Positions 10,063-54,330 are shown, numbered from the stretch's first letter. The stretch is 64,000 nucleotides of DNA from Thermoplasmata archaeon (GCA_036395115.1 DASWDU010000034.1:14941-78940); one strand, 5' to 3'. Made by a program: numbers and translations. The notes: a model not told the origin generated them from the sequence alone.

Positions 10063-11533
10063 TGTCCAGGATGACGACGAGATCGGCCGTCGCGGTCTCT
10101 CGCAAGGTCGTGGCGTGGACCTCGAACCGGACGGTCGCGGGGAGGGGCACCGGCCACGACGGCGGCGCGGTGATCTGAAGATCGAGGAGCGCGCGTTCGG
10201 AGGCGTTGAGTTCCACGCGCACCGTATCATTGTTCACGGTCGTGTTGGTCGAACCGACCACCACGTCGAGGAATTGGAACGAAAAGCCGAAGCTCGCAAG
10301 GTTCGGATTTTTCGCCGTGACGACGACGATTTCGGACGCTGCCGCGGTATGGTTCACGGCGAACCGGGTCAGCCCGATCGTCGCGCCGATGCGGATCGTC
10401 TGGTTGATGGCGACGAGCGGGCTTCCGTCGAGCTTCTCGAATGTCAGGCCCGGTCCCCCGCCGATCGCGACGAACGGCACGGGGACGAACGTCAGGAAGA
10501 GGATCGCGACGGCGCCGATCCCGACGAGTTTGCGGGCCGCGTCGAGGCGCGTGATGTCGTTCAGTGGCGGGGGATGGCGCGCGCCCAGCATCAGGATCAG
10601 GAAGGCAAAGAAAATCCAGCCGATGTACCACGCGCTCATGATGAAGAGCAAGAGGATCGCGGCCCACGACAGGTAGAACTGGTTCCGCCCGAAGAGGGCG
10701 CGGGCGATGTGGCCGCCGTCGAGCTGTCCGGCCGGGAGGAGGTTGATCGCCGTCACGAAGAGGCCGACCCATCCCGCGAAGGCGAGGGGATGCTTGAGGA
10801 CCGGGTTCGGGAGGGGGAAGAACAGGGAGAGGAAGTTGAAGAGCAGGGAACCTTGGATCGCTTCGCCGGGCACCGTCGGCACGACGGGAGGCGTCCCGGT
10901 CGAGAGGGCGAGGCCCGCGAGCGTCACCGGGATCGCGATCGCGAAACCGACGAGCGGCCCGGAGACGCCGATGTCCAGGAGGGCGCGGCGGTTCGGGATG
11001 GGGTCGCGCATGCTGATGAACGCGCCGAGCGTGCCGAGCGGCGGCAACGAGGGGAGGAAGAACGGCAGCGAGGCGTGGACCTTGTACTTCTTGGCGACGA
11101 GGAAGTGGCCCATCTCGTGGGAGCCGAGGATCGTGAGGAGCGGGAGGGAGAAGAACAGGCTGCCGTAGCCGATCGAGGCGGCGGAGAGGATCGGCTCCCC
11201 CGAATAGGCGGACCAGTTCCAGGCGCCGCCGAAGAACACGATCGAGGGGATCGTCAGGAGCAGCAGCAGGAGGTTCACCTGTCGCCTCGCGAATCGCATC
11301 CGCGGCCGGCGCTGCACGTGGAGGAGCGTCTCGCCCCGTTCCTGCGTCACGGTCGGGATATAGTCCCTCGGGACGAGTTCCTGGCGGAGTGCGTCGAACG
11401 GCGCATCGATGCTCCCGCTCGGGGAGGTGACCTGGAACGTCAGCGCGAGCGGCGTCACGACGACGCCGTATACGGTGAAGTACTTCGCCACGACGGTCCG
11501 GATCGCCTCGATCTCCGCTGCGGGCGAGTCCAT
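10052..11533 (-). CDS. Site-2 protease family (M50) membrane zinc metalloprotease with C-terminal extracytoplasmic domain
   Basis: 'HEMGHFLVA' HExxH motif, 'LLPAGQLDGGHI' motif, multiple TM segments. Confidence 0.8.
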   Translation of the reverse strand: MDSPAAEIEAIRTVVAKYFTVYGVVVTPLALTFQVTSPSGSIDAPFDALRQELVPRDYIPTVTQERGETLLHVQRRPRMRFARRQVNLLLLLLTIPSIVFFGGAWNWSAYSGEPILSAASIGYGSLFFSLPLLTILGSHEMGHFLVAKKYKVHASLPFFLPSLPPLGTLGAFISMRDPIPNRRALLDIGVSGPLVGFAIAIPVTLAGLALSTGTPPVVPTVPGEAIQGSLLFNFLSLFFPLPNPVLKHPLAFAGWVGLFVTAINLLPAGQLDGGHIARALFGRNQFYLSWAAILLLFIMSAWYIGWIFFAFLILMLGARHPPPLNDITRLDAARKLVGIGAVAILFLTFVPVPFVAIGGGPGLTFEKLDGSPLVAINQTIRIGATIGLTRFAVNHTAAASEIVVVTAKNPNLASFGFSFQFLDVVVGSTNTTVNNDTVRVELNASERALLDLQITAPPSWPVPLPATVRFEVHATTLRETATADLVVILDITP

Positions 11534-12923: not shown

Positions 12924-15623
12924 TCATCCGCTCTCGATCCCGAGTCGCTGGCGGACGAGTTCCTCGAGCCGCGCCGCGGCGGCCCTCGCCTGGTCGGCGT
13001 TCGGGAAGCTCGCCTGTGCGAAGTCCGGCTTTCCGCCGCCCTTGCCGTGGAAGTCCGGCGCGACGCTCCGGACGAGCTCCGCCGCGTCGATCGGCACCTG
13101 CACGCCGCGCGTGAGGACGAGCTTCACGTCGCTCGGCGACGGCGCCCAGTAGATCCCGATCGCCCGCGACTCGGAGGCGGTCGCCTTCGACATCGAGAGC
13201 ATGAACCCGACCCCTTGTGGGACCTCGGACCGGAGGATCGGCCATGGACCTTTCGCGGTCTCGATTTCCTGTCGCGTCTTCGCGGCCGCCTGCTCGTCCG
13301 TCGCCCGCTGGGAGATCTTGCGGTACTCCTTCCACTCGGCCACAATCCGCTCCGCGGCCGGCACGACGCGGTCCCCCGGCACTTCGAGGATCTCCGCGAC
13401 GCGCGCGAGCTCCTCGGCCTGCTTGCGCACGGCCTCGAGCGCGCCTTTGCCGGCGGCGTACTCCAGGCGGACGACGCCGTCCTGGATCCGGGTTGATCGG
13501 AGGATCTTGATCAAGGAGACGTCGCTCGTCCGCGAGACGTGGGTGCCGCCGCATGCCTCGACGTCCCACTTCGGGATCTCGACGACCCGCAGCTCGCCCC
13601 CGGGGACGGAGCCACCCTGATAGAGCCGGAAGCCGTACTTCCGCTCCGCGACGTCCCGGGCGAGGAACGTCGCCCGCACCTGGCGCCGCGCGAGGACCTC
13701 GTCGTTCGCGAGCGCCTCGATCTTCGTGACTTCCGCGTCGGTCAGGGCGTCGAAGTGGGTGATGTCGAGACGCGCCATGTCAGCGGCCTTGTGCGCGCCC
13801 GCCTGCCACACGTGGTTCCCGAGCGCCTTCCGCGCGGCGCCGAGGACGATGTGCGTGGCGGTGTGGTTCCGCATGAGTGCCTCCCGCCGCTCGCCGTCGA
13901 TCGCGCACGCGACGCGTGCGCCCTTGAGCGCGGACGCGTCGCCGCGGACGAAGTGCAGCACGCTGGCCCCGACCTTCTGGACGTCGTAAACCTCCCGGTC
14001 CCCGATTGTCCCGTGGTCCGCCTCCTGGCCGCCGCCTTCCGGGTAGAAGTACGTCTGGTCGAGGACGACCGCCTCGCCTTCGACCGCGAGGACCTTGGCC
14101 CGGAAGGCGCGCTTCCGCTTGTCCTCGTAGACGCGGAGCTTCGTCGGGGGGAGCGCCTTGGAGACCGTGACCTTCTTCGTCGCCTCGGCGGCCGCGGGCC
14201 GTTCGTGGCGGGCGGCGACCCGCGAGTAGAAGTCGTCCGGCACCTCGACGGGGGCGTCCGCGAATTCCCGGACGACGTCCGGGTTCAGTCCGTGGCTATC
14301 GTAGAGCTGGATCAACGTGTCGACGTCGAAGGCCTTCCCGGCGGCCTTCAGGTCCGCCGCGATCTTGCCGACCGTGGCACGGCCCTTTTCGAGCGTCTCA
14401 CGATACCGGGCCTCCTCGACCTTCAGGAGTTTCAGGATGTCGCCTTTGTTGAAGAAGAACTCCGGGTAGTCCTCCCGCATCTGGTCGATCATGAACGAGA
14501 CGGTGTCCGCGAGGCTGTACGTGATGTTGAGGTCCTTCAGCGCTCGCAGCCCGCGGCGCACGAGGAGGCGGGCGAAGTACCCCTCCCGGCTGTTCGACGG
14601 CACGACGCCGTCGCCGAGGAGGAAGATCAGGGCGCGCGCGTGGTCGCACACCGTGTACAGTGCTTCGAGGGGCGAGACCTGGGCGACGAGCTCGTCGACC
14701 GAGAGGCCGACCCGTTCTGCGGTCTGCCGGCGGATCTCGCGGATGTCCGCGAGGCTCTCGACCTTCAGCAGGCCCGCGACCTTCGAGTACTCCCGCAGCA
14801 CGCGGTCGTCCACGCGCTTCGCCCCGGTCGCGCGCTTCAGGTATGCGAGCGCGTCGCCGAAGACGGCCTCGTACGCCGACGTCGTGCCTTGGGAGAGCCA
14901 CGTGAGCCGCTCGAGGCCGTAGCCCGTGTCGACGACTTGCGTGTCCATTGGCACTCGATGCCCGTTCACCTCGCGGTTCATCATGAACACGAGCGTCGCG
15001 GCTTCCGCGCCGCCGAAGACGACCTCGAAGCACGGCCCGCTGTTCCCGCCGCCCTCCCACCACGACTCCTTGTACCGGACGACATCGGGCTTGAGGCCGA
15101 GCCGATCCGTGAGGAAGCCGTGGCACAGTTCGACAGTGTGATCCTTGAAGTACAGGAACTTCCCCGGAAAGTTGAACGCGTGGTGGGCCATCATCTCGAA
15201 CATCGTGAAGTGCTGCCCCGTCTTCCCGACGTTGTCGACATCGAGGAAGCGGACGCACGGCTGCGAGAGTGTGAGCGGGTTCGCAGGCGGGCTCGCCTCG
15301 CCGCTGATCACCCACGGCTGGAACGGGTAGACGCTCGCCTGCACGAAGAAGACGTCGTCGCGCCAACGGGCGACAATCGGGTAGCGCTTCACGCGAGTGT
15401 GGCCGTTCTGCTCCAGGTAGGAAAGGAAGTCCTCCCGCATCGCGCGGTAGGTGAGCTTCTTGGCGAACGGAGGATTCCCGATGAAGTCGTACTCCTGGCA
15501 CGGGGCCTCGCCACACGTCTCGTGCTGACCGATCGCCCAGAAGGCCTTCCCGCACTTCGCGCACGTCTGGCGAGTGAATCCCTGCTTGCGGAACAGCTCG
15601 ACCTCGTATTCACTCTCGGGCAT
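12924..15623 (-). CDS. alaS: Alanine--tRNA ligase (archaeal type)
   Basis: 899 aa. N-terminal 'FTRQTCAKCGKAFWA' zinc motif, class II AlaRS core, and a C-terminal 'HTATHIV...CGGTHV' editing-domain-like motif. Confidence 0.95.
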   Translation of the reverse strand: MPESEYEVELFRKQGFTRQTCAKCGKAFWAIGQHETCGEAPCQEYDFIGNPPFAKKLTYRAMREDFLSYLEQNGHTRVKRYPIVARWRDDVFFVQASVYPFQPWVISGEASPPANPLTLSQPCVRFLDVDNVGKTGQHFTMFEMMAHHAFNFPGKFLYFKDHTVELCHGFLTDRLGLKPDVVRYKESWWEGGGNSGPCFEVVFGGAEAATLVFMMNREVNGHRVPMDTQVVDTGYGLERLTWLSQGTTSAYEAVFGDALAYLKRATGAKRVDDRVLREYSKVAGLLKVESLADIREIRRQTAERVGLSVDELVAQVSPLEALYTVCDHARALIFLLGDGVVPSNSREGYFARLLVRRGLRALKDLNITYSLADTVSFMIDQMREDYPEFFFNKGDILKLLKVEEARYRETLEKGRATVGKIAADLKAAGKAFDVDTLIQLYDSHGLNPDVVREFADAPVEVPDDFYSRVAARHERPAAAEATKKVTVSKALPPTKLRVYEDKRKRAFRAKVLAVEGEAVVLDQTYFYPEGGGQEADHGTIGDREVYDVQKVGASVLHFVRGDASALKGARVACAIDGERREALMRNHTATHIVLGAARKALGNHVWQAGAHKAADMARLDITHFDALTDAEVTKIEALANDEVLARRQVRATFLARDVAERKYGFRLYQGGSVPGGELRVVEIPKWDVEACGGTHVSRTSDVSLIKILRSTRIQDGVVRLEYAAGKGALEAVRKQAEELARVAEILEVPGDRVVPAAERIVAEWKEYRKISQRATDEQAAAKTRQEIETAKGPWPILRSEVPQGVGFMLSMSKATASESRAIGIYWAPSPSDVKLVLTRGVQVPIDAAELVRSVAPDFHGKGGGKPDFAQASFPNADQARAAAARLEELVRQRLGIESG

Positions 15624-15654
15624 TCCCGGCTGGATGAACGCGCTCGATATAAAG

Positions 15655-15960
15655 ATGTATCAAGAGTGACCGCGCCTGCACCTCCAGGTGCCGTCCGGAG
15701 GCCAGAGGCGGCGTTTTGTAGGATTCTTCAAAACGGTCACTCGACCCGAACGTCGAGATGGCCGTACGCCACACTCTTAGCCTTGTAGACGTTTTCAAAG
15801 CCGCGCGGAGCGTGGAGACGGTTTTGCAAGGTCCTTCAAAACAGATTCGTGGCCCGACTGGGGCGATCGCCTGATTTCGAAATATCCTACAAAAAGGGCA
15901 GGCCGCGTTTCGCATTTTTGAAGGACTCTACAAAAGGGACTCAAGTCACTCTCGTATCAA
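15655..15960. repeat. Intergenic block with five copies of an imperfect palindrome TTTTG-N10/11-CAAAA (core tAGGAtyCTa), bounded by an inverted repeat (caagAGAGTGAC ... GTCACTCTcg)
   Basis: Copies at ~15713-15734, 15782-15800, 15821-15842, 15883-15900 and 15914-15938. Flanking inverted repeat at 15660-15670 and 15945-15954. Confidence 0.6.
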
Positions 15961-17088
15961 TTCGCGAGCAATGACCATCCGCTGGATCTCACTCGTGCCT
16001 TCTCCGATTTCTGTGAGTTTCGCGTCACGCAACATCCGTTCTACGGGATAGTCGGCGATGTAACCGTATCCGCCGTGGATCTGCACCGCCCGGTTCGTCA
16101 CGAACGACGACATCTCGCTCGCGTAGAGCTTGGCCATCGCGGCCTCCTTCTTGAATGACTTTCCCTGGTCTTTCAGCCAAGCCGCGCGCCGTACCAACGC
16201 CCGCGCCGCATCGATCCTCGTCGCCATGTCGGCGAGCATGAACTGAATCGCCTGATGCTCCGCAATCGGTTTGTCGAACTGAATCCGTTCCCTCGCATAC
16301 TTCACGGACTCCTCGAACGCGCCTTGCGAAATCCCGACCGCCATCGAGCCGATTCCGATCCGGCCGCCATCGAGGATCTTCAGCGCGTTCGCGAAGCCTC
16401 CCGCCTCGGGTCCCAGGAGCGCGTCCTTGGGGACCTTGCACTCCGTGAGGATGACCTGCGACGTGGCGCTGCCGCGCACCCCGAGCTTCTCTTCGACCTT
16501 CCCGATCGAGAGGCCGCGGTTGCCTCGCTCGACGATGAAGGCGCTGATCCCTCGGTTCCCCTTGGTCGTATCCGTAACGGCGTGGATGACGAACGTCCCC
16601 GCGACCGGGGCGTTCGTGCAGAAAGTCTTCGTGCCGTTCAAGACCCAACCGTCCTTCGTCCGGATGGCCGTGGACCGCATCGCGGCAGCGTCCGATCCGC
16701 TTGTTGGTTCCGTGAGGGCCCACGCCCCGACCTTGCGGCCGCTGGCGAGGTCCGGGATGTACCTTCGCTTCTGCTCCTCCGTCCCCGCGAGCCAGATCGT
16801 CCCGGTGCACAGCGAGTTGTGGGCCGCCATGATGAGCGCGTGCGATCCGCACACGCGCGCGACCTCCTCGATTCCGATCGCAAGCGCGACGGCATCGAGG
16901 CCCGCACCTTCGTACTCCTGGGGGATCGCCACGCCAAGGAGCCCGAGGCCGGCCATCTTCGCGACGGTATCCTTCGGGAACTCGCCGGTCTTGTCGACGC
17001 GTGCCGCAATCGGACGGATTTCATTCTCGGCGAAATCGTGGACCGTTTGGCGGATCATCTCGTGTTCGGGCTTCAGCTCGAAGTCCAT
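15946..17088 (-). CDS. Acyl-CoA dehydrogenase
   Basis: 380 aa ACAD fold: '...[15 protein letters not shown]...', '...IHGGYGY...' and a C-terminal catalytic Glu region '[10 protein letters not shown]'. Confidence 0.9.
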
Positions 17089-17149
17089 GGGACGCCCATG
17101 AGGCCTAAACCCAAACGTGCCTTTAGGGCTTCGCTCCCATCGTAGCCGT

Positions 17150-17218
17150 CGTCTTTGGTAGGATCCTACAAAAGGGCTCGTTGGGCCGACGCGATTTTGT
17201 AAGGTTCTTCAGAATCCA
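17150..17218. repeat. Two further copies of the TTTTG-N10-CAAAA palindrome (ttggtaggatcctacaaaag; ttttgtaaggttcttcagaa)
   Basis: Near-perfect 18-nt palindrome at 17155-17172 and a second copy at 17194-17213, between acd and the exonuclease gene. Confidence 0.6.
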
Positions 17219-17790
17219 CCTTCAGCGCCCGAGGCTTGCGGCGGCCTCCGCCGCTTGTCCCCAAGGTCTCCCAAGACCCCGCGACTCTCGTCCAACACGT
17301 CCATCAAGGCGTCGCGCTCTCGCGTCACGTACTCGATGATCTCCGGATACCGTCCGTCCCGGTACATCTTCGGGACGCGGGCGCCGCTCTCCTTGTCCGC
17401 GTACCGATGGAGGCTCGATCCCTCGAACGAGCCGCGGTTGAGCAGGACGAGCACGGAGGAGAGGTCGAAGTACGGCTTCGTGAACCAGTAGTACTTGAGC
17501 TTCCCGATGTCCCAGTCGACCAGCTTCCATTTGGTCGCCCGCTCGATCAGGAACGTCAGGTCGAACCGAAGGCGGTTCCCCACCGGCACGAAGTCCCACG
17601 TCGGCTCGAGGACGCCCTTTTCGAGGACCGTCTGGATCGCCTGCCTCTCCCCCCACTCCCACTCCGCGACGACCTGGAAGGTCCCCTTCGGCGTGAGTTC
17701 GTCGGTGAGCGGCTGGTACTGCACCGTGATGATGCGGTCCTGCTGCGGGCCGTCCCCCGTCGTTTCCGTATCGAAGTAGTATAGCGGCAC
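17209..17790 (-). CDS. DEDD-family 3'-5' exonuclease (DnaQ-like)
   Basis: GTG start 'VPLYYFDTETTG...' (Exo I motif), '...GNRLRFDLTFL...' (Exo II) and '...LHRYADKE...' (Exo III-like). The remainder of the 565-aa ORF upstream is Arg-rich high-GC noise. Confidence 0.55.
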   Translation of the reverse strand: MPLYYFDTETTGDGPQQDRIITVQYQPLTDELTPKGTFQVVAEWEWGERQAIQTVLEKGVLEPTWDFVPVGNRLRFDLTFLIERATKWKLVDWDIGKLKYYWFTKPYFDLSSVLVLLNRGSFEGSSLHRYADKESGARVPKMYRDGRYPEIIEYVTRERDALMDVLDESRGVLGDLGDKRRRPPQASGAEGGF

Positions 17791-21242: not shown

Positions 21243-21821
21243 TTGACGGCCGTGATGCTGCGCAAACCCACGATGGACCCGGAGTCGAAGACCTACAAGT
21301 TCAAGATCTGCCTTGTGGGGGAAGAGGGCGTCGGCAAGACGAGCCTCATCCATCGTTTCGTGTCCGGTGCGTTCGACGAGTCGTACATCCGCACACTCGG
21401 GGCCGTCGTCTCGAAGAAGACCGTCGCCCTGGGATCGATGCACGGTCGGCCGGTCCAGGTCGACATGATGATCCTCGACATTATGGGCAAGCGGACGTTC
21501 TTGCAGCTGTTCAAGGAAGCGTACTTCCACGGCGCGAAGGGCGTCCTCGCGGTGTTCGACATGACCCGCGCCGCCTCGTTGCGCGACCTGACGAAGTGGA
21601 TCGACGGCGTGCGGGACTCCGTCGGCCCGATCCCGGTGTACGCGCTCGGCAACAAGACCGACCTGACGCAACGCCGCGAGGCGACGCCGGAGGAAGCCTC
21701 GTCGATCCTGCGGTCGTACGAGTGCCCGATCCTGTACACGTCCGCGAAGACGGGCGACAACGTCGAGCAGGCGTTCCAAGGCCTCGCGAAGACGATCGTC
21801 GAGTCGAGCGTCACCGAGTAA
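21243..21821 (+). CDS. Ras/Rab-like small GTPase with non-canonical switch II
   Basis: G1 'GEEGVGKTS', switch I 'YIRTLG', G3 'DIMGKR' (DxxG with the catalytic Gln position replaced), G4 'NKTD', G5 'TSAK'. The true start may be the internal Met 'MDPESK' near 21273. Confidence 0.75.
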
Positions 21822-53099: not shown

Positions 53100-54330
53100 G
53101 ATAAAGTCGGTGCGGCGCCGTAGCATACATGCATGCTACGTGAGTCCTCGTCGCTCCTTCCAGTACGTCGCCCATCGGATCAGGTCGCCCCACCCATCGT
53201 CGAACGGCAGTCGGATCCCGGCAGCTATGGCTGGCGTGCCGCCGTCCAGCGATTCGTGGCCCCGAAGGAAATCGTATTGCACGACGAAGGCGTGGCTGAA
53301 CGCCTCCGCCCCGGCGGGGGTCTGGAAGCCGCGCATTGTCTTCACGCGGTCCTTGAATGTCCCATTCAGCCGCTCGATGAGATTGTTGTTCGGGCCGCTC
53401 CGGAAGTGAATCCGATTCAAGTGGAGTCGCCCCGTTGTGTTCGCGTAGAAGTTCCTTCGGACGCCTTCGCGGTAGGCGGCCAAGCGGTCCGTCACGATCC
53501 GTTCGGGCCGCGTTAGGGAAACGGCCTTCGCCTCCCGGAACAGGCGAACGGCGTGTTCGTCCTTCCGGCCCCACTCCGTCACGGAACTCGATGCGATAAA
53601 CCGCGTCCCCGCGTCCTCCGTGAACCACGTCCACATGTCCACTCCCGCGACCTTGATCGCGGTCTCGTCGGCGTGCCACGTCGTGCTTAGGTCCGCTCGG
53701 AACGAGGACGTGTACTCGCGGACCAGCGGCGCGTACTTCCGGAGCCACCGCCAGATTGTCGACTTGTCCCGCCGGGGGTAGAGGTTGCGCCCCGTCCGCT
53801 TGTGGCTCAGGCCGTCCACATACAGACGAAGCGCGGAGGCGATCACACGGGTCGGCGTCCGCATCTTCGGAAGCCGTCCGTTGTCCTCGAACGTATGGTG
53901 ACAGTCTTTGCATCGGAGCACCTGCACGCCGCGCTTCCGGCCGTACTTCGTCACATGGTTCGAGGCACAGTACTTGCATTTGCCCTTCCTCTCGGCAACT
54001 TGATACGCGAGCTGTTCCTTACTGATCGTCCGGGGTTCGTCGGACACAACGACGAGCCTCCCAGCCAAGCGGTGTTCACAGCACCGCTTGGCTCCACTTT
54101 CTCCATAGGAACAGAGGCTAATCTGTGTGACAGCAGGGGGTGAGCGAACCTCCTCGGGAACGAGGAAAACCCGCCATTTATCGCGCGTACGGCGCGTCCC
54201 TGGGCGATCTGAAACACTTTCACTCGGGAGGCTAGTCTGACGGTGCCGACGGTGGACGTGCCGACGCGCGTTCTGGCCCAATCCCGGGGCTTCCTACCCA
54301 CGCCCGGGATGGCTACGCCTGGGTCGGTTT
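53100..54330 (-). mobile_element. IS6-family insertion sequence (approximate ends)
   Basis: Single IS6-type transposase; boundaries and TIRs not resolved. Confidence 0.5.
53136..54281 (-). CDS. IS6-family transposase with N-terminal zinc-ribbon/HTH extension
   Basis: '...WHADETAIKVAGVDMWTWF...IVTDRLAAY...NNLIERLNGTFKDRVKTMRGF' DDE region; N-terminal 'CKYCASNHV...CKDCHH'. True start probably internal. Confidence 0.75.
   Translation of the reverse strand: MGQNARRHVHRRHRQTSLPSESVSDRPGTRRTRDKWRVFLVPEEVRSPPAVTQISLCSYGESGAKRCCEHRLAGRLVVVSDEPRTISKEQLAYQVAERKGKCKYCASNHVTKYGRKRGVQVLRCKDCHHTFEDNGRLPKMRTPTRVIASALRLYVDGLSHKRTGRNLYPRRDKSTIWRWLRKYAPLVREYTSSFRADLSTTWHADETAIKVAGVDMWTWFTEDAGTRFIASSSVTEWGRKDEHAVRLFREAKAVSLTRPERIVTDRLAAYREGVRRNFYANTTGRLHLNRIHFRSGPNNNLIERLNGTFKDRVKTMRGFQTPAGAEAFSHAFVVQYDFLRGHESLDGGTPAIAAGIRLPFDDGWGDLIRWATYWKERRGLT

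Follow-up and report, generated by a model that had tools for sequence, protein, structure and literature searches.

This study concerns seven palindromes of 20 bp that lie on both sides of acd, which encodes an acyl-CoA dehydrogenase, in the genome of a soil Thermoplasmata archaeon. We examined this genome over one stretch of 64,000 nucleotides (64 kb; about 65% GC), and we refer to the whole stretch as the window. The gene acd (380 amino acids, 15946–17088) lies between alaS, which encodes an alanyl-tRNA synthetase of 899 amino acids (12924–15623), and a gene for an exonuclease-like protein of 193 amino acids (17209–17790); all three are on the minus strand. Beyond the exonuclease-like gene, the plus strand encodes thiolases, DUF35/ChsH2 proteins, a Ras-like GTPase, and components of methylmalonyl-CoA mutase, all of which were identified with Pfam. 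An earlier note on this DNA had called alaS, acd, the thiolases, and DUF35, and Pfam shows that these calls are right. The note's exonuclease is a reading by eye of an FDTETTG motif, and the protein has no Pfam match on record. The note had also reported the palindromes and had offered two explanations for them: either they are operators for a regulator of the lipid and acyl-CoA genes, or they form a small, non-autonomous mobile repeat.

All seven palindromes are where the note had placed them, five in the 322-bp spacer between acd and alaS and two in the 120-bp spacer between the exonuclease-like gene and acd, and they share the consensus TTTTGWAGGAnnCTWCAAAA. We number the five from the end of acd towards alaS: s1 (TTTTGAAGGACTCTACAAAA, 15916–15935), s2 (TTTCGAAATATCCTACAAAA, 15875–15894), s3 (TTTTGCAAGGTCCTTCAAAA, 15822–15841), s4 (CCTTGTAGACGTTTTCAAAG, 15781–15800), which is degenerate, and s5 (TTTTGTAGGATTCTTCAAAA, 15714–15733). 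On the other side of acd are s6 (TTTGGTAGGATCCTACAAAA, 17154–17173), in which 9 of the 10 pairs are palindromic, and s7 (TTTTGTAAGGTTCTTCAGAA, 17195–17214), which overlaps the stop codon of the exonuclease-like gene. The start-to-start distances along the window are 67, 41, 53, 41, 1,238, and 41 bp, so that three pairs of sites (s1/s2, s3/s4, and s6/s7) are separated by exactly 41 bp.

If up to one mismatch is allowed, then TTTTG-N10-CAAAA matches the window 6 times, as compared to 0.23 matches that are expected (about a 26-fold excess), and 0 of 100 shuffles had six or more matches. A symmetrised position weight matrix (PWM) that was built from the seven sites gives them scores of 20 to 37.5 bits (s4 has 20.1 bits), while the best other position in the 64 kb has 7.7 bits. 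So the motif search that the note had called for, when it is run over the window with this matrix, finds no sites beyond the two flanks of acd.

The acd–alaS spacer in relatives

We compared homologs of Acd that range from 96% down to 74% identity, and we fetched the loci of several of them (L numbers below). The exact matches (L001–L005) do not differ from the window, so nothing can be learned from comparing them with it; the same sequence is also found in metagenome assemblies of JGI and ENA. The order of the exonuclease-like gene, acd, and alaS is kept in all of the relatives that we fetched except for the closest ones: in L182 and L183 (Acd 96% identical), acd is followed by a PKD-domain gene and alaS is not adjacent. 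What lies between acd and alaS varies. L007 (Acd 88% identical) has a spacer of 74 bp without palindromes. L185 and L186 have a DUF6114 gene there. In L006, L009, and L184 (Acd 91–92% identical), four copies of another 20-bp palindrome, TTATGCCCAnnTGGGCATAA, surround an open reading frame (ORF) of 107 amino acids on the opposite strand. And in eight independent loci (L008, L060, L079, L152, L163, L166, L179, and L189), the spacer contains a TTTTG-type array together with an intact gene. The small proteins from these two types of cassettes are homologous to each other (38% identity, E = 4e-15), and we named the family S.

In the eight intact loci, the stop codon of acd is followed by s1–s2 (41–44 bp), a gap of 73–83 bp, s3–s4 (42–43 bp), a gene that was called at 108–152 amino acids, s5, about 60 nt, and the TATA box of alaS. 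The sites s1 to s5 of the window align, in order, with the arrays of L060, L008, L163, and others, in which s1 is the first of four sites that are upstream of S. In the window as well, s5 is 3' of the stop codon of S and about 60 nt 5' of the alaS TATA box, and its sequence is the same as that of s5 in L060. The note had suggested a comparative alignment of this intergenic region, and the alignment identifies S-containing arrays as the orthologs of the array in the window. In other words, the window has the architecture of an S cassette, but the gene is present only as a remnant.

The remnant consists of the last 13 codons and the stop codon of S (15737–15778, minus strand). It is the end of an ORF and reads KSVAYGHLDVRVE before the stop codon, as compared to RSVAYGHLGVRID at the end of the intact genes; it matches the S protein of L008 by tblastn (E = 0.003), and it can be aligned with the intact genes as DNA. 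The edge of the deletion is directly beside s4, and the deletion removed the putative promoter of S and the rest of its coding sequence. Every intact cassette has a conserved block, CGAATACTTTCGGTCACCTCC, after s4. This block is a candidate promoter for S, and it is gone from the window. The distance from s2 to s3 is also shorter in the window (53 bp, vs. 73–83 bp in intact cassettes).

The sites themselves appear to be under constraint. If we align lineages whose spacers are 45–59% identical, then the four upstream sites align with each other and the intervening DNA does not. This pattern, in which sites are kept while the DNA around them diverges, is a phylogenetic footprint of function.

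We have high confidence in the anatomy of the locus: s1–s5 are an array of sites that was orphaned when the S gene of its cassette was deleted, and s6 and s7 are a lineage-specific pair in front of acd. Our interpretation goes further. We propose that the seven palindromes are an array of binding sites for S, which is a lineage-specific protein, and that the deletion of its gene left s1–s5 without their protein. We would put the probability of this interpretation at roughly 65%.

A few other coding sequences deserve mention. The S gene of L008 (11423–11731) lacks the conserved first strand (it has KLSPMTFS in place of LEIVSYDI), and its array is intact; this gene may itself be a decaying copy. 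In the window, tblastn with S also gave weak matches at 63.3 kb, which are inside an unrelated ORF of 244 amino acids and which we consider to be noise. Finally, an ORF of 101 amino acids that crosses the palindromes (15610–15915, minus strand) has no homologs and is spurious.

The S family and its palindromes

S is a protein of about 111 amino acids with an arginine-rich N-terminal tail and, according to structure prediction, a ferredoxin-like core. The prediction by AlphaFold2 has a pLDDT (predicted local distance difference test) of 88, and the fold is a generic ferredoxin-like fold. A profile search of 1.84 billion cluster representatives identified only 127 clusters of S. Given this number of clusters and the confidence of the model, S is a real protein and, as modelled, a well-folded one. 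The named members are all from metagenome-assembled genomes (MAGs) of Thermoplasmata, "Methanobacteriota," or Euryarchaeota, and these are mostly from soil and groundwater. Searches against Pfam, NCBIfam, PADLOC, PHROGs, and PDB profiles gave no meaningful match to the family, and the viral contigs that we searched contain no relative of it. Our searches of the literature found no description of the family or of its motif. So within these libraries and this literature, there seems to be no earlier description of the S family or of its private, phased arrays of palindromes.

There are also distant S-like domains, which form the C-terminal half of lysine- and asparagine-rich proteins of about 190–210 amino acids (P0360, P0361, P0384, P0405, and P0408). 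The N-terminal half of these proteins is a minimal nucleotidyltransferase domain (NTP_transf_2/Polbeta). Their composition suggests that they come from organisms with low-GC genomes, and the fusions suggest that the S fold is a reusable module.

Among the species representatives of GTDB, we found 53 S loci, and several single MAGs contain 3–5 paralogs. In about 47 of the 55 S loci that we examined, 20-bp palindromes of the gene's own type lie on both sides of it. A typical cassette has one palindrome just 5' of the start codon, one at the stop codon or 4–7 bp past it, and one to three more further downstream. There are at least 10 types of half-sites: TTATGCCCAA, TTTTACTCAA, TTCTACTCAA, TTTCGTGTAT, TTTGTCTCAA, TTTTCCTCAA, TTTCGATAAT, TTTGGAAAGG, TTTTGAAATT, and the TTTTGWAGGA that is found in the window. 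Paralogs of S within one genome always differ in their type of half-site. For example, SMAG_U11616 has the types TTATGCCCAA, TTTTACTCAA, and TTTCGTGTAT, and SMAG_U11601 has TTTTACTCAA as well as the TTTTG type. Overall, the distances between half-sites are correlated with the distances between S proteins (Mantel r of about 0.5; 0 of 2,000 permutations).

The S genes are found in conserved slots. In 19 loci, S lies between the genes for glutamyl-tRNA synthetase (GluRS) and a class I/II aminotransferase (for example, L010, L014, L024, L033, and L035). Other S genes are beside aIF2-gamma with cysteinyl-tRNA synthetase (CysRS) nearby (two genes away in L038, L043, and L049), between acd and alaS, beside dihydroorotate dehydrogenase, beside NDK and L24e, between GST and Nre, or in still other slots. 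We note that 3 of the roughly 10 slots adjoin or are near genes for aminoacyl-tRNA synthetases and that the fold of S resembles the amino acid-binding ACT and RAM domains. This may be a coincidence, or it may hint at control that responds to amino acids.

The spacing of the palindromes is informative about how they might be recognized. Across the family, there are 75 distances from one site to the next, with peaks at 42, 53, 64, and 74 bp, a best period of 10.5–10.8 bp, and a phase of about 0 (Rayleigh p of about 3e-8). With whole turns of B-DNA between the sites, successive dimers would lie on one face of the helix, which is a signature of cooperative binding to duplex DNA. We infer, with moderate confidence, that S is the binder and that one dimer of S would bind each 20-bp palindrome on double-stranded DNA. 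Neighboring dimers, placed on one face of the helix by the whole-turn spacing, would form a cooperative, higher-order complex. This complex would autoregulate the S gene and might influence the adjacent genes as well. We propose autoregulation because s4 abuts the candidate promoter of S. Without S, the array in the window is probably inert: it would be a recently orphaned relic, unless the genome has a second S gene of the same specificity elsewhere.

Several observations weigh against our interpretation. The protein–palindrome correlation extends over all of S, and column-wise covariation does not single out a recognition helix. Also, a correlation is partly expected from linkage, as the gene and its sites are inherited together. 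At least four divergent homologs of S (L045, L056, L057, and L059, which are 41–59% identical to the query) have no recognizable 20-bp palindromes at their flanks; they may use a site of another shape or may themselves be degenerate. The 75 spacings are not all phylogenetically independent. Lastly, the sites in the window are still near the consensus despite the loss of the S gene, which implies that either the deletion is recent or something else reads the sites.

Other readings of the array

If the palindromes were the operators of a lipid regulator, as the note had suggested, then an acyl-CoA-responsive protein that resembles FadR/TetR or has a winged helix-turn-helix (HTH) would be encoded elsewhere and would control acd together with the thiolase and DUF35 genes. 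This reading is helped by s6 and s7, which are near-perfect palindromes just 5' of the acd promoter block (s6 is about 20 nt away) and which are identical or nearly so in L182 and L183. There is also a precedent: FadR of Sulfolobus acidocaldarius uses dyad-symmetric sites by an acyl-CoA dehydrogenase gene within a cluster of fatty acid genes (PMC6449355). That FadR is a TetR protein that is encoded in its own cluster, and it has four sites with a 16-bp motif (PMC6449355), while the motif here is 20 bp. Furthermore, Pfam scans of the ORFs at about 9–25 kb found no TetR gene nor any other regulator, as the note had said of the cluster. Most of the sites (five of seven) are 3' of acd, and none are at the divergent promoter of the thiolase and exonuclease-like genes. 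We searched the window and about 90 kb from the eight intact TTTTG-type loci, and we found no sites of more than 15 bits outside of the flanks of acd or the cassette. In those eight loci (which include L189, L008, and L079), the thiolase, DUF35, and mutase genes and even the acd promoter have no sites, and neither do the acd orthologs of L007, L185, and L186. Only the lineage of the window has the s6/s7 pair. In L006 and L184, whose TTTTG-type S was replaced by another, the pair shows visible decay, and it is absent from L007, L008, L060, and L189. So we see none of the hallmarks of a FadR/TetR regulon, namely a regulator gene nearby, operators at several lipid promoters, and sites that are conserved along with the target gene. 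Instead, the array is orthologous to one that is centered on the S gene and belongs to a separate cassette. Part of the note's proposal stands, in that the conserved half-sites, their whole-turn spacing, and their retention are what we would expect for the operators of a dimeric DNA-binding protein. As for control of acd, the thiolases, and DUF35 by a FadR- or TetR-like protein, the data contradict it; this reading is largely refuted already, and we consider it very improbable.

It seems even less plausible that the array is AT-rich sequence that clusters by chance in a GC-rich spacer, or that it is a set of generic promoter or terminator signals. Archaeal promoters and terminators are indeed A/T-rich, and the sites open with T4 and close with A4. 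But the shuffle counts, the PWM scores, and the alignment of the relatives refute this explanation: the inner bases GWAGGA are common to the sites, the same ordered array is kept in at least five diverged lineages, and the sites are elements distinct from both the TATA box of alaS and the promoter block of acd. Another reading is that the palindromes act as hairpins, in RNA or in single-stranded DNA, within the untranslated regions of S, acd, or alaS (as terminators or for processing or stability) and that S is an RNA-binding protein or nuclease that is akin to Cas2 or VapD. Like these proteins, S has about 100 amino acids, a ferredoxin fold, and an acidic motif at the end of beta-1, and it has weak structural matches to them. 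However, 0 of 102 members of S match Cas2 in Pfam, and the profile search of PDB did not return Cas2. The neighbors of S that were called do not include cas1, and in contrast to the variable spacers of CRISPR-Cas, the repeats of S are full palindromes of 20 bp that are helically phased and that keep their positions from one ortholog to the next. As to the hairpins, the spacer does have a favorable RNA fold (z = −2.9), but this arises trivially from repeats that are complementary to each other. Across 162 copies of the palindromes, there are 198 mismatched outer pairs. G:U wobble could accommodate 60 of these if it is on the sense strand and 65 if it is on the antisense strand, and the other 73 (37%) fit with neither, so there is no asymmetry between the strands. 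At position 6/15 of the window's type of palindrome, each half has T or A independently of the other (giving T·T, A·A, or C·T), which implies that it is the half-sites that are conserved and not the base pairs. The spacing matches the repeat of B-DNA (about 10.6 bp), and Rfam has no match to the region, either at the gathering threshold or at E ≤ 1 (it found one tRNA elsewhere in the window). We think that hairpins are a distinctly unlikely explanation.

The remaining question is whether the array is, or was, mobile. Miniature inverted-repeat transposable elements (MITEs) are short and AT-rich, with a terminal inverted repeat and a direct repeat, and they have many dispersed copies per genome. 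REP/RAYT systems have a small transposase gene that is flanked by its own cognate palindromes; the transposase has the HUH-Tyr fold, and the palindromes are dispersed in hundreds. The note had suggested that the array may be MITE-like. In a broader form of this idea, the S gene and its palindromes could make up a minimal cassette, selfish or mobile, in which the protein acts on the palindromes that flank its gene, in the manner of a transposon or REP/RAYT. Like MITEs, the unit in the window is short and AT-rich, has repeats at its ends, and is present or absent among relatives. As with REP/RAYT, a small gene is flanked by cognate palindromes whose sequence co-varies with the clade of the protein. 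One argument for mobility is that the spacer differs so much among close relatives: it is empty in L007, it contains a TTTTG-type cassette in L008, L060, L189, and others, and it contains the DUF6114 gene in L185 and L186. In L006, L009, and L184, it holds an unrelated cassette of the TTATGCCCA type that is oriented the other way. The S protein of this cassette has its closest matches (73%) in the GluRS-slot cassettes of other species; the S copy in the GluRS slot of its own genome is only 57% identical to the same query. The acd–alaS slot has been emptied, has decayed, and has been refilled, with the TTATGCCCA-type cassette as the refill, so transfer and replacement do happen on occasion. Also, many S genes are on very short contigs.

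The ends of the block in the window could be viewed as another sign of mobility. Near alaS, a copy of GTATCAA and the inverted-repeat arm AGAGTGAC (15663–15670) together span 15657–15670; at the other end, the arm GTCACTCT (15945–15952), a single c, and a second GTATCAA extend to 15960, within the stop codon and last codons of acd. GTATCAA is found only twice in the 64 kb. This layout, with an 8-bp inverted repeat and a 7-bp direct repeat outside of it, looks like a terminal inverted repeat (TIR) with a target-site duplication (TSD), and it is found in this window only and nowhere else in its 64 kb. The note had described the block as bounded by an inverted repeat, and both arms are present. 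However, one arm and its GTATCAA fall within the final codons of acd, and about 5% of shuffles produce an 8-bp terminal inverted repeat by itself. The TTGATAC on the alaS side is ancestral, intact cassettes have no such signature, and a third occurrence of GAGTGAC is the context of the stop codon of the S remnant. The bracketing repeats may reflect a secondary rearrangement. We do note that the 2–6 codons at the C-terminal end of Acd, after the conserved IAR(E/D)(L/F)L, differ from lineage to lineage (ELIRE, LLGK, LLH, FLGS, or LLRGNAA before the stop codon; window 15946–15966, L006 at about 11120–11143, L007, L008, L060, and L182). These differences fit with repeated rearrangement of the DNA just downstream.

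Other evidence argues against mobility. All of the sites are at one locus, both in the window and in each of the eight relatives (about 5–21 kb each, about 90 kb together). In a scan of metagenomes with TTTTGWAGGANNCTWCAAAA, most of the matches listed are single chance matches in low-GC DNA, and among the high-GC matches listed, the only related arrays are acd–alaS cassettes; the three high-GC single matches that we inspected from those listed (L076, L111, and L114) are one unrelated element. Many species carry their S paralogs in conserved syntenic slots, such as the 19 loci with GluRS and the aminotransferase, which implies that S is mainly inherited vertically and argues against an active transposon. 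S has no match to transposases in Pfam or PDB, no HUH triad by eye in its conserved columns, and no HUH/Tyr or DDE signature; nor did viral contigs, PHROGs, or PADLOC give a match. Its palindromes are not dispersed in hundreds as in REP/RAYT. And unlike a MITE, the unit in the window is at a single locus and has five ordered palindromes that resemble protein-binding sites along with the remnant of a gene, while in relatives it has a coding gene inside. So a MITE as the note described it does not fit, even though the spacer is polymorphic for both presence and replacement of the unit. For the broader idea of a selfish cassette, our view is that it is improbable.

Among known DNA-binding proteins, we also considered the Lrp/AsnC family. 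Ss-LrpB of Sulfolobus solfataricus binds cooperatively to duplex DNA at three regularly spaced boxes (PMC1802622). The sites of S are palindromic boxes that are regularly spaced as well, with a period of 10.5–10.8 bp and phase 0; by analogy, their binding might also be cooperative. On the other hand, the boxes of S are 20 bp, not 15 bp as for Ss-LrpB (PMC1802622), and S has no HTH in its model or in Pfam and no sequence match to Lrp. The sites of S are on both sides of the gene, and each paralog has a private type of site. In place of the HTH and RAM domains of Lrp/AsnC proteins, S has only the generic similarity of its fold to RAM and ACT domains.

Neighboring features and the meaning of the S family

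The promoters of the flanking genes are conserved. The TATA box of alaS (TTTATAT, 15647–15653, minus strand) is centered about 27 nt 5' of the ATG and is kept in all of the relatives, and this short distance implies that the alaS mRNA is leaderless. The alaS promoter as a whole, (C/T)TGATA(C/T)ATCTTTATATCG (15621–15653, minus strand), is near-invariant between the window and the orthologous positions of L006–L008, L060, and L189. On the other side of acd, GCGAAGCCCTAAAGGC (17119–17134, minus strand) is a conserved block that is a candidate for the TFB recognition element (BRE) and TATA box of acd; it is also present in relatives without s6 and s7. Scans for sigma-70 promoters and intrinsic terminators are uninformative here, as the host is an archaeon. 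Elsewhere in the window, there is an isolated AT-rich palindrome, GTAGCATACATGCATGCTAC (53120–53139; 9 of 10 pairs), in a low-GC stretch; its sequence is unrelated to S-type sites.

The Ras-like gene is in the Ras/Arf/Roc family of small GTPases (21243–21821, plus strand; Pfam Ras, E = 4.5e-34) and lies between the DUF35/thiolase genes and the methylmalonyl-CoA mutase/MeaB genes. It is kept in all of the relatives (5265–5813 in L006, 5356–5922 in L007, 5340–5903 in L008, and 3967–4515 in L189). A Ras-type GTPase is an unusual partner for an archaeal lipid/acyl-CoA cluster.

We believe that the interest of this locus lies more in the S family and its private, phased arrays than in the context of acd. 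There is a lesson for annotation, which is that a metabolic gene is not necessarily under the control of conspicuous palindromes beside it; the ones in the window are what is left of a neighboring cassette. More speculatively, S could be an unrecognized class of sequence-specific DNA-binding proteins in the Thermoplasmata, with a ferredoxin/Cas2-like fold instead of a classical DNA-binding motif and with a private, phased array for each gene. On this tentative view, which we would not bet on, S genes would be semi-autonomous, single-gene cassettes beside essential genes (alaS, gltX, and near cysS) that are sometimes swapped between species and that perhaps couple the expression of those genes to a signal. 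If this is true, then S would be a new superfamily of archaeal transcription factors or else a new kind of minimal selfish element.

Gene regulation in the uncultured Thermoplasmata of soil is essentially unknown, and the known DNA-binding folds of archaea are mostly bacterial-type HTH and ribbon-helix-helix. If S binds these palindromes, then it would be a new family of DNA-binding proteins with a natural series of specificities: at least 10 pairs of proteins and sites, with several orthogonal pairs per genome and with phased arrays. Such a series would be useful for studying how proteins and their DNA sites co-evolve and as a source of orthogonal parts.

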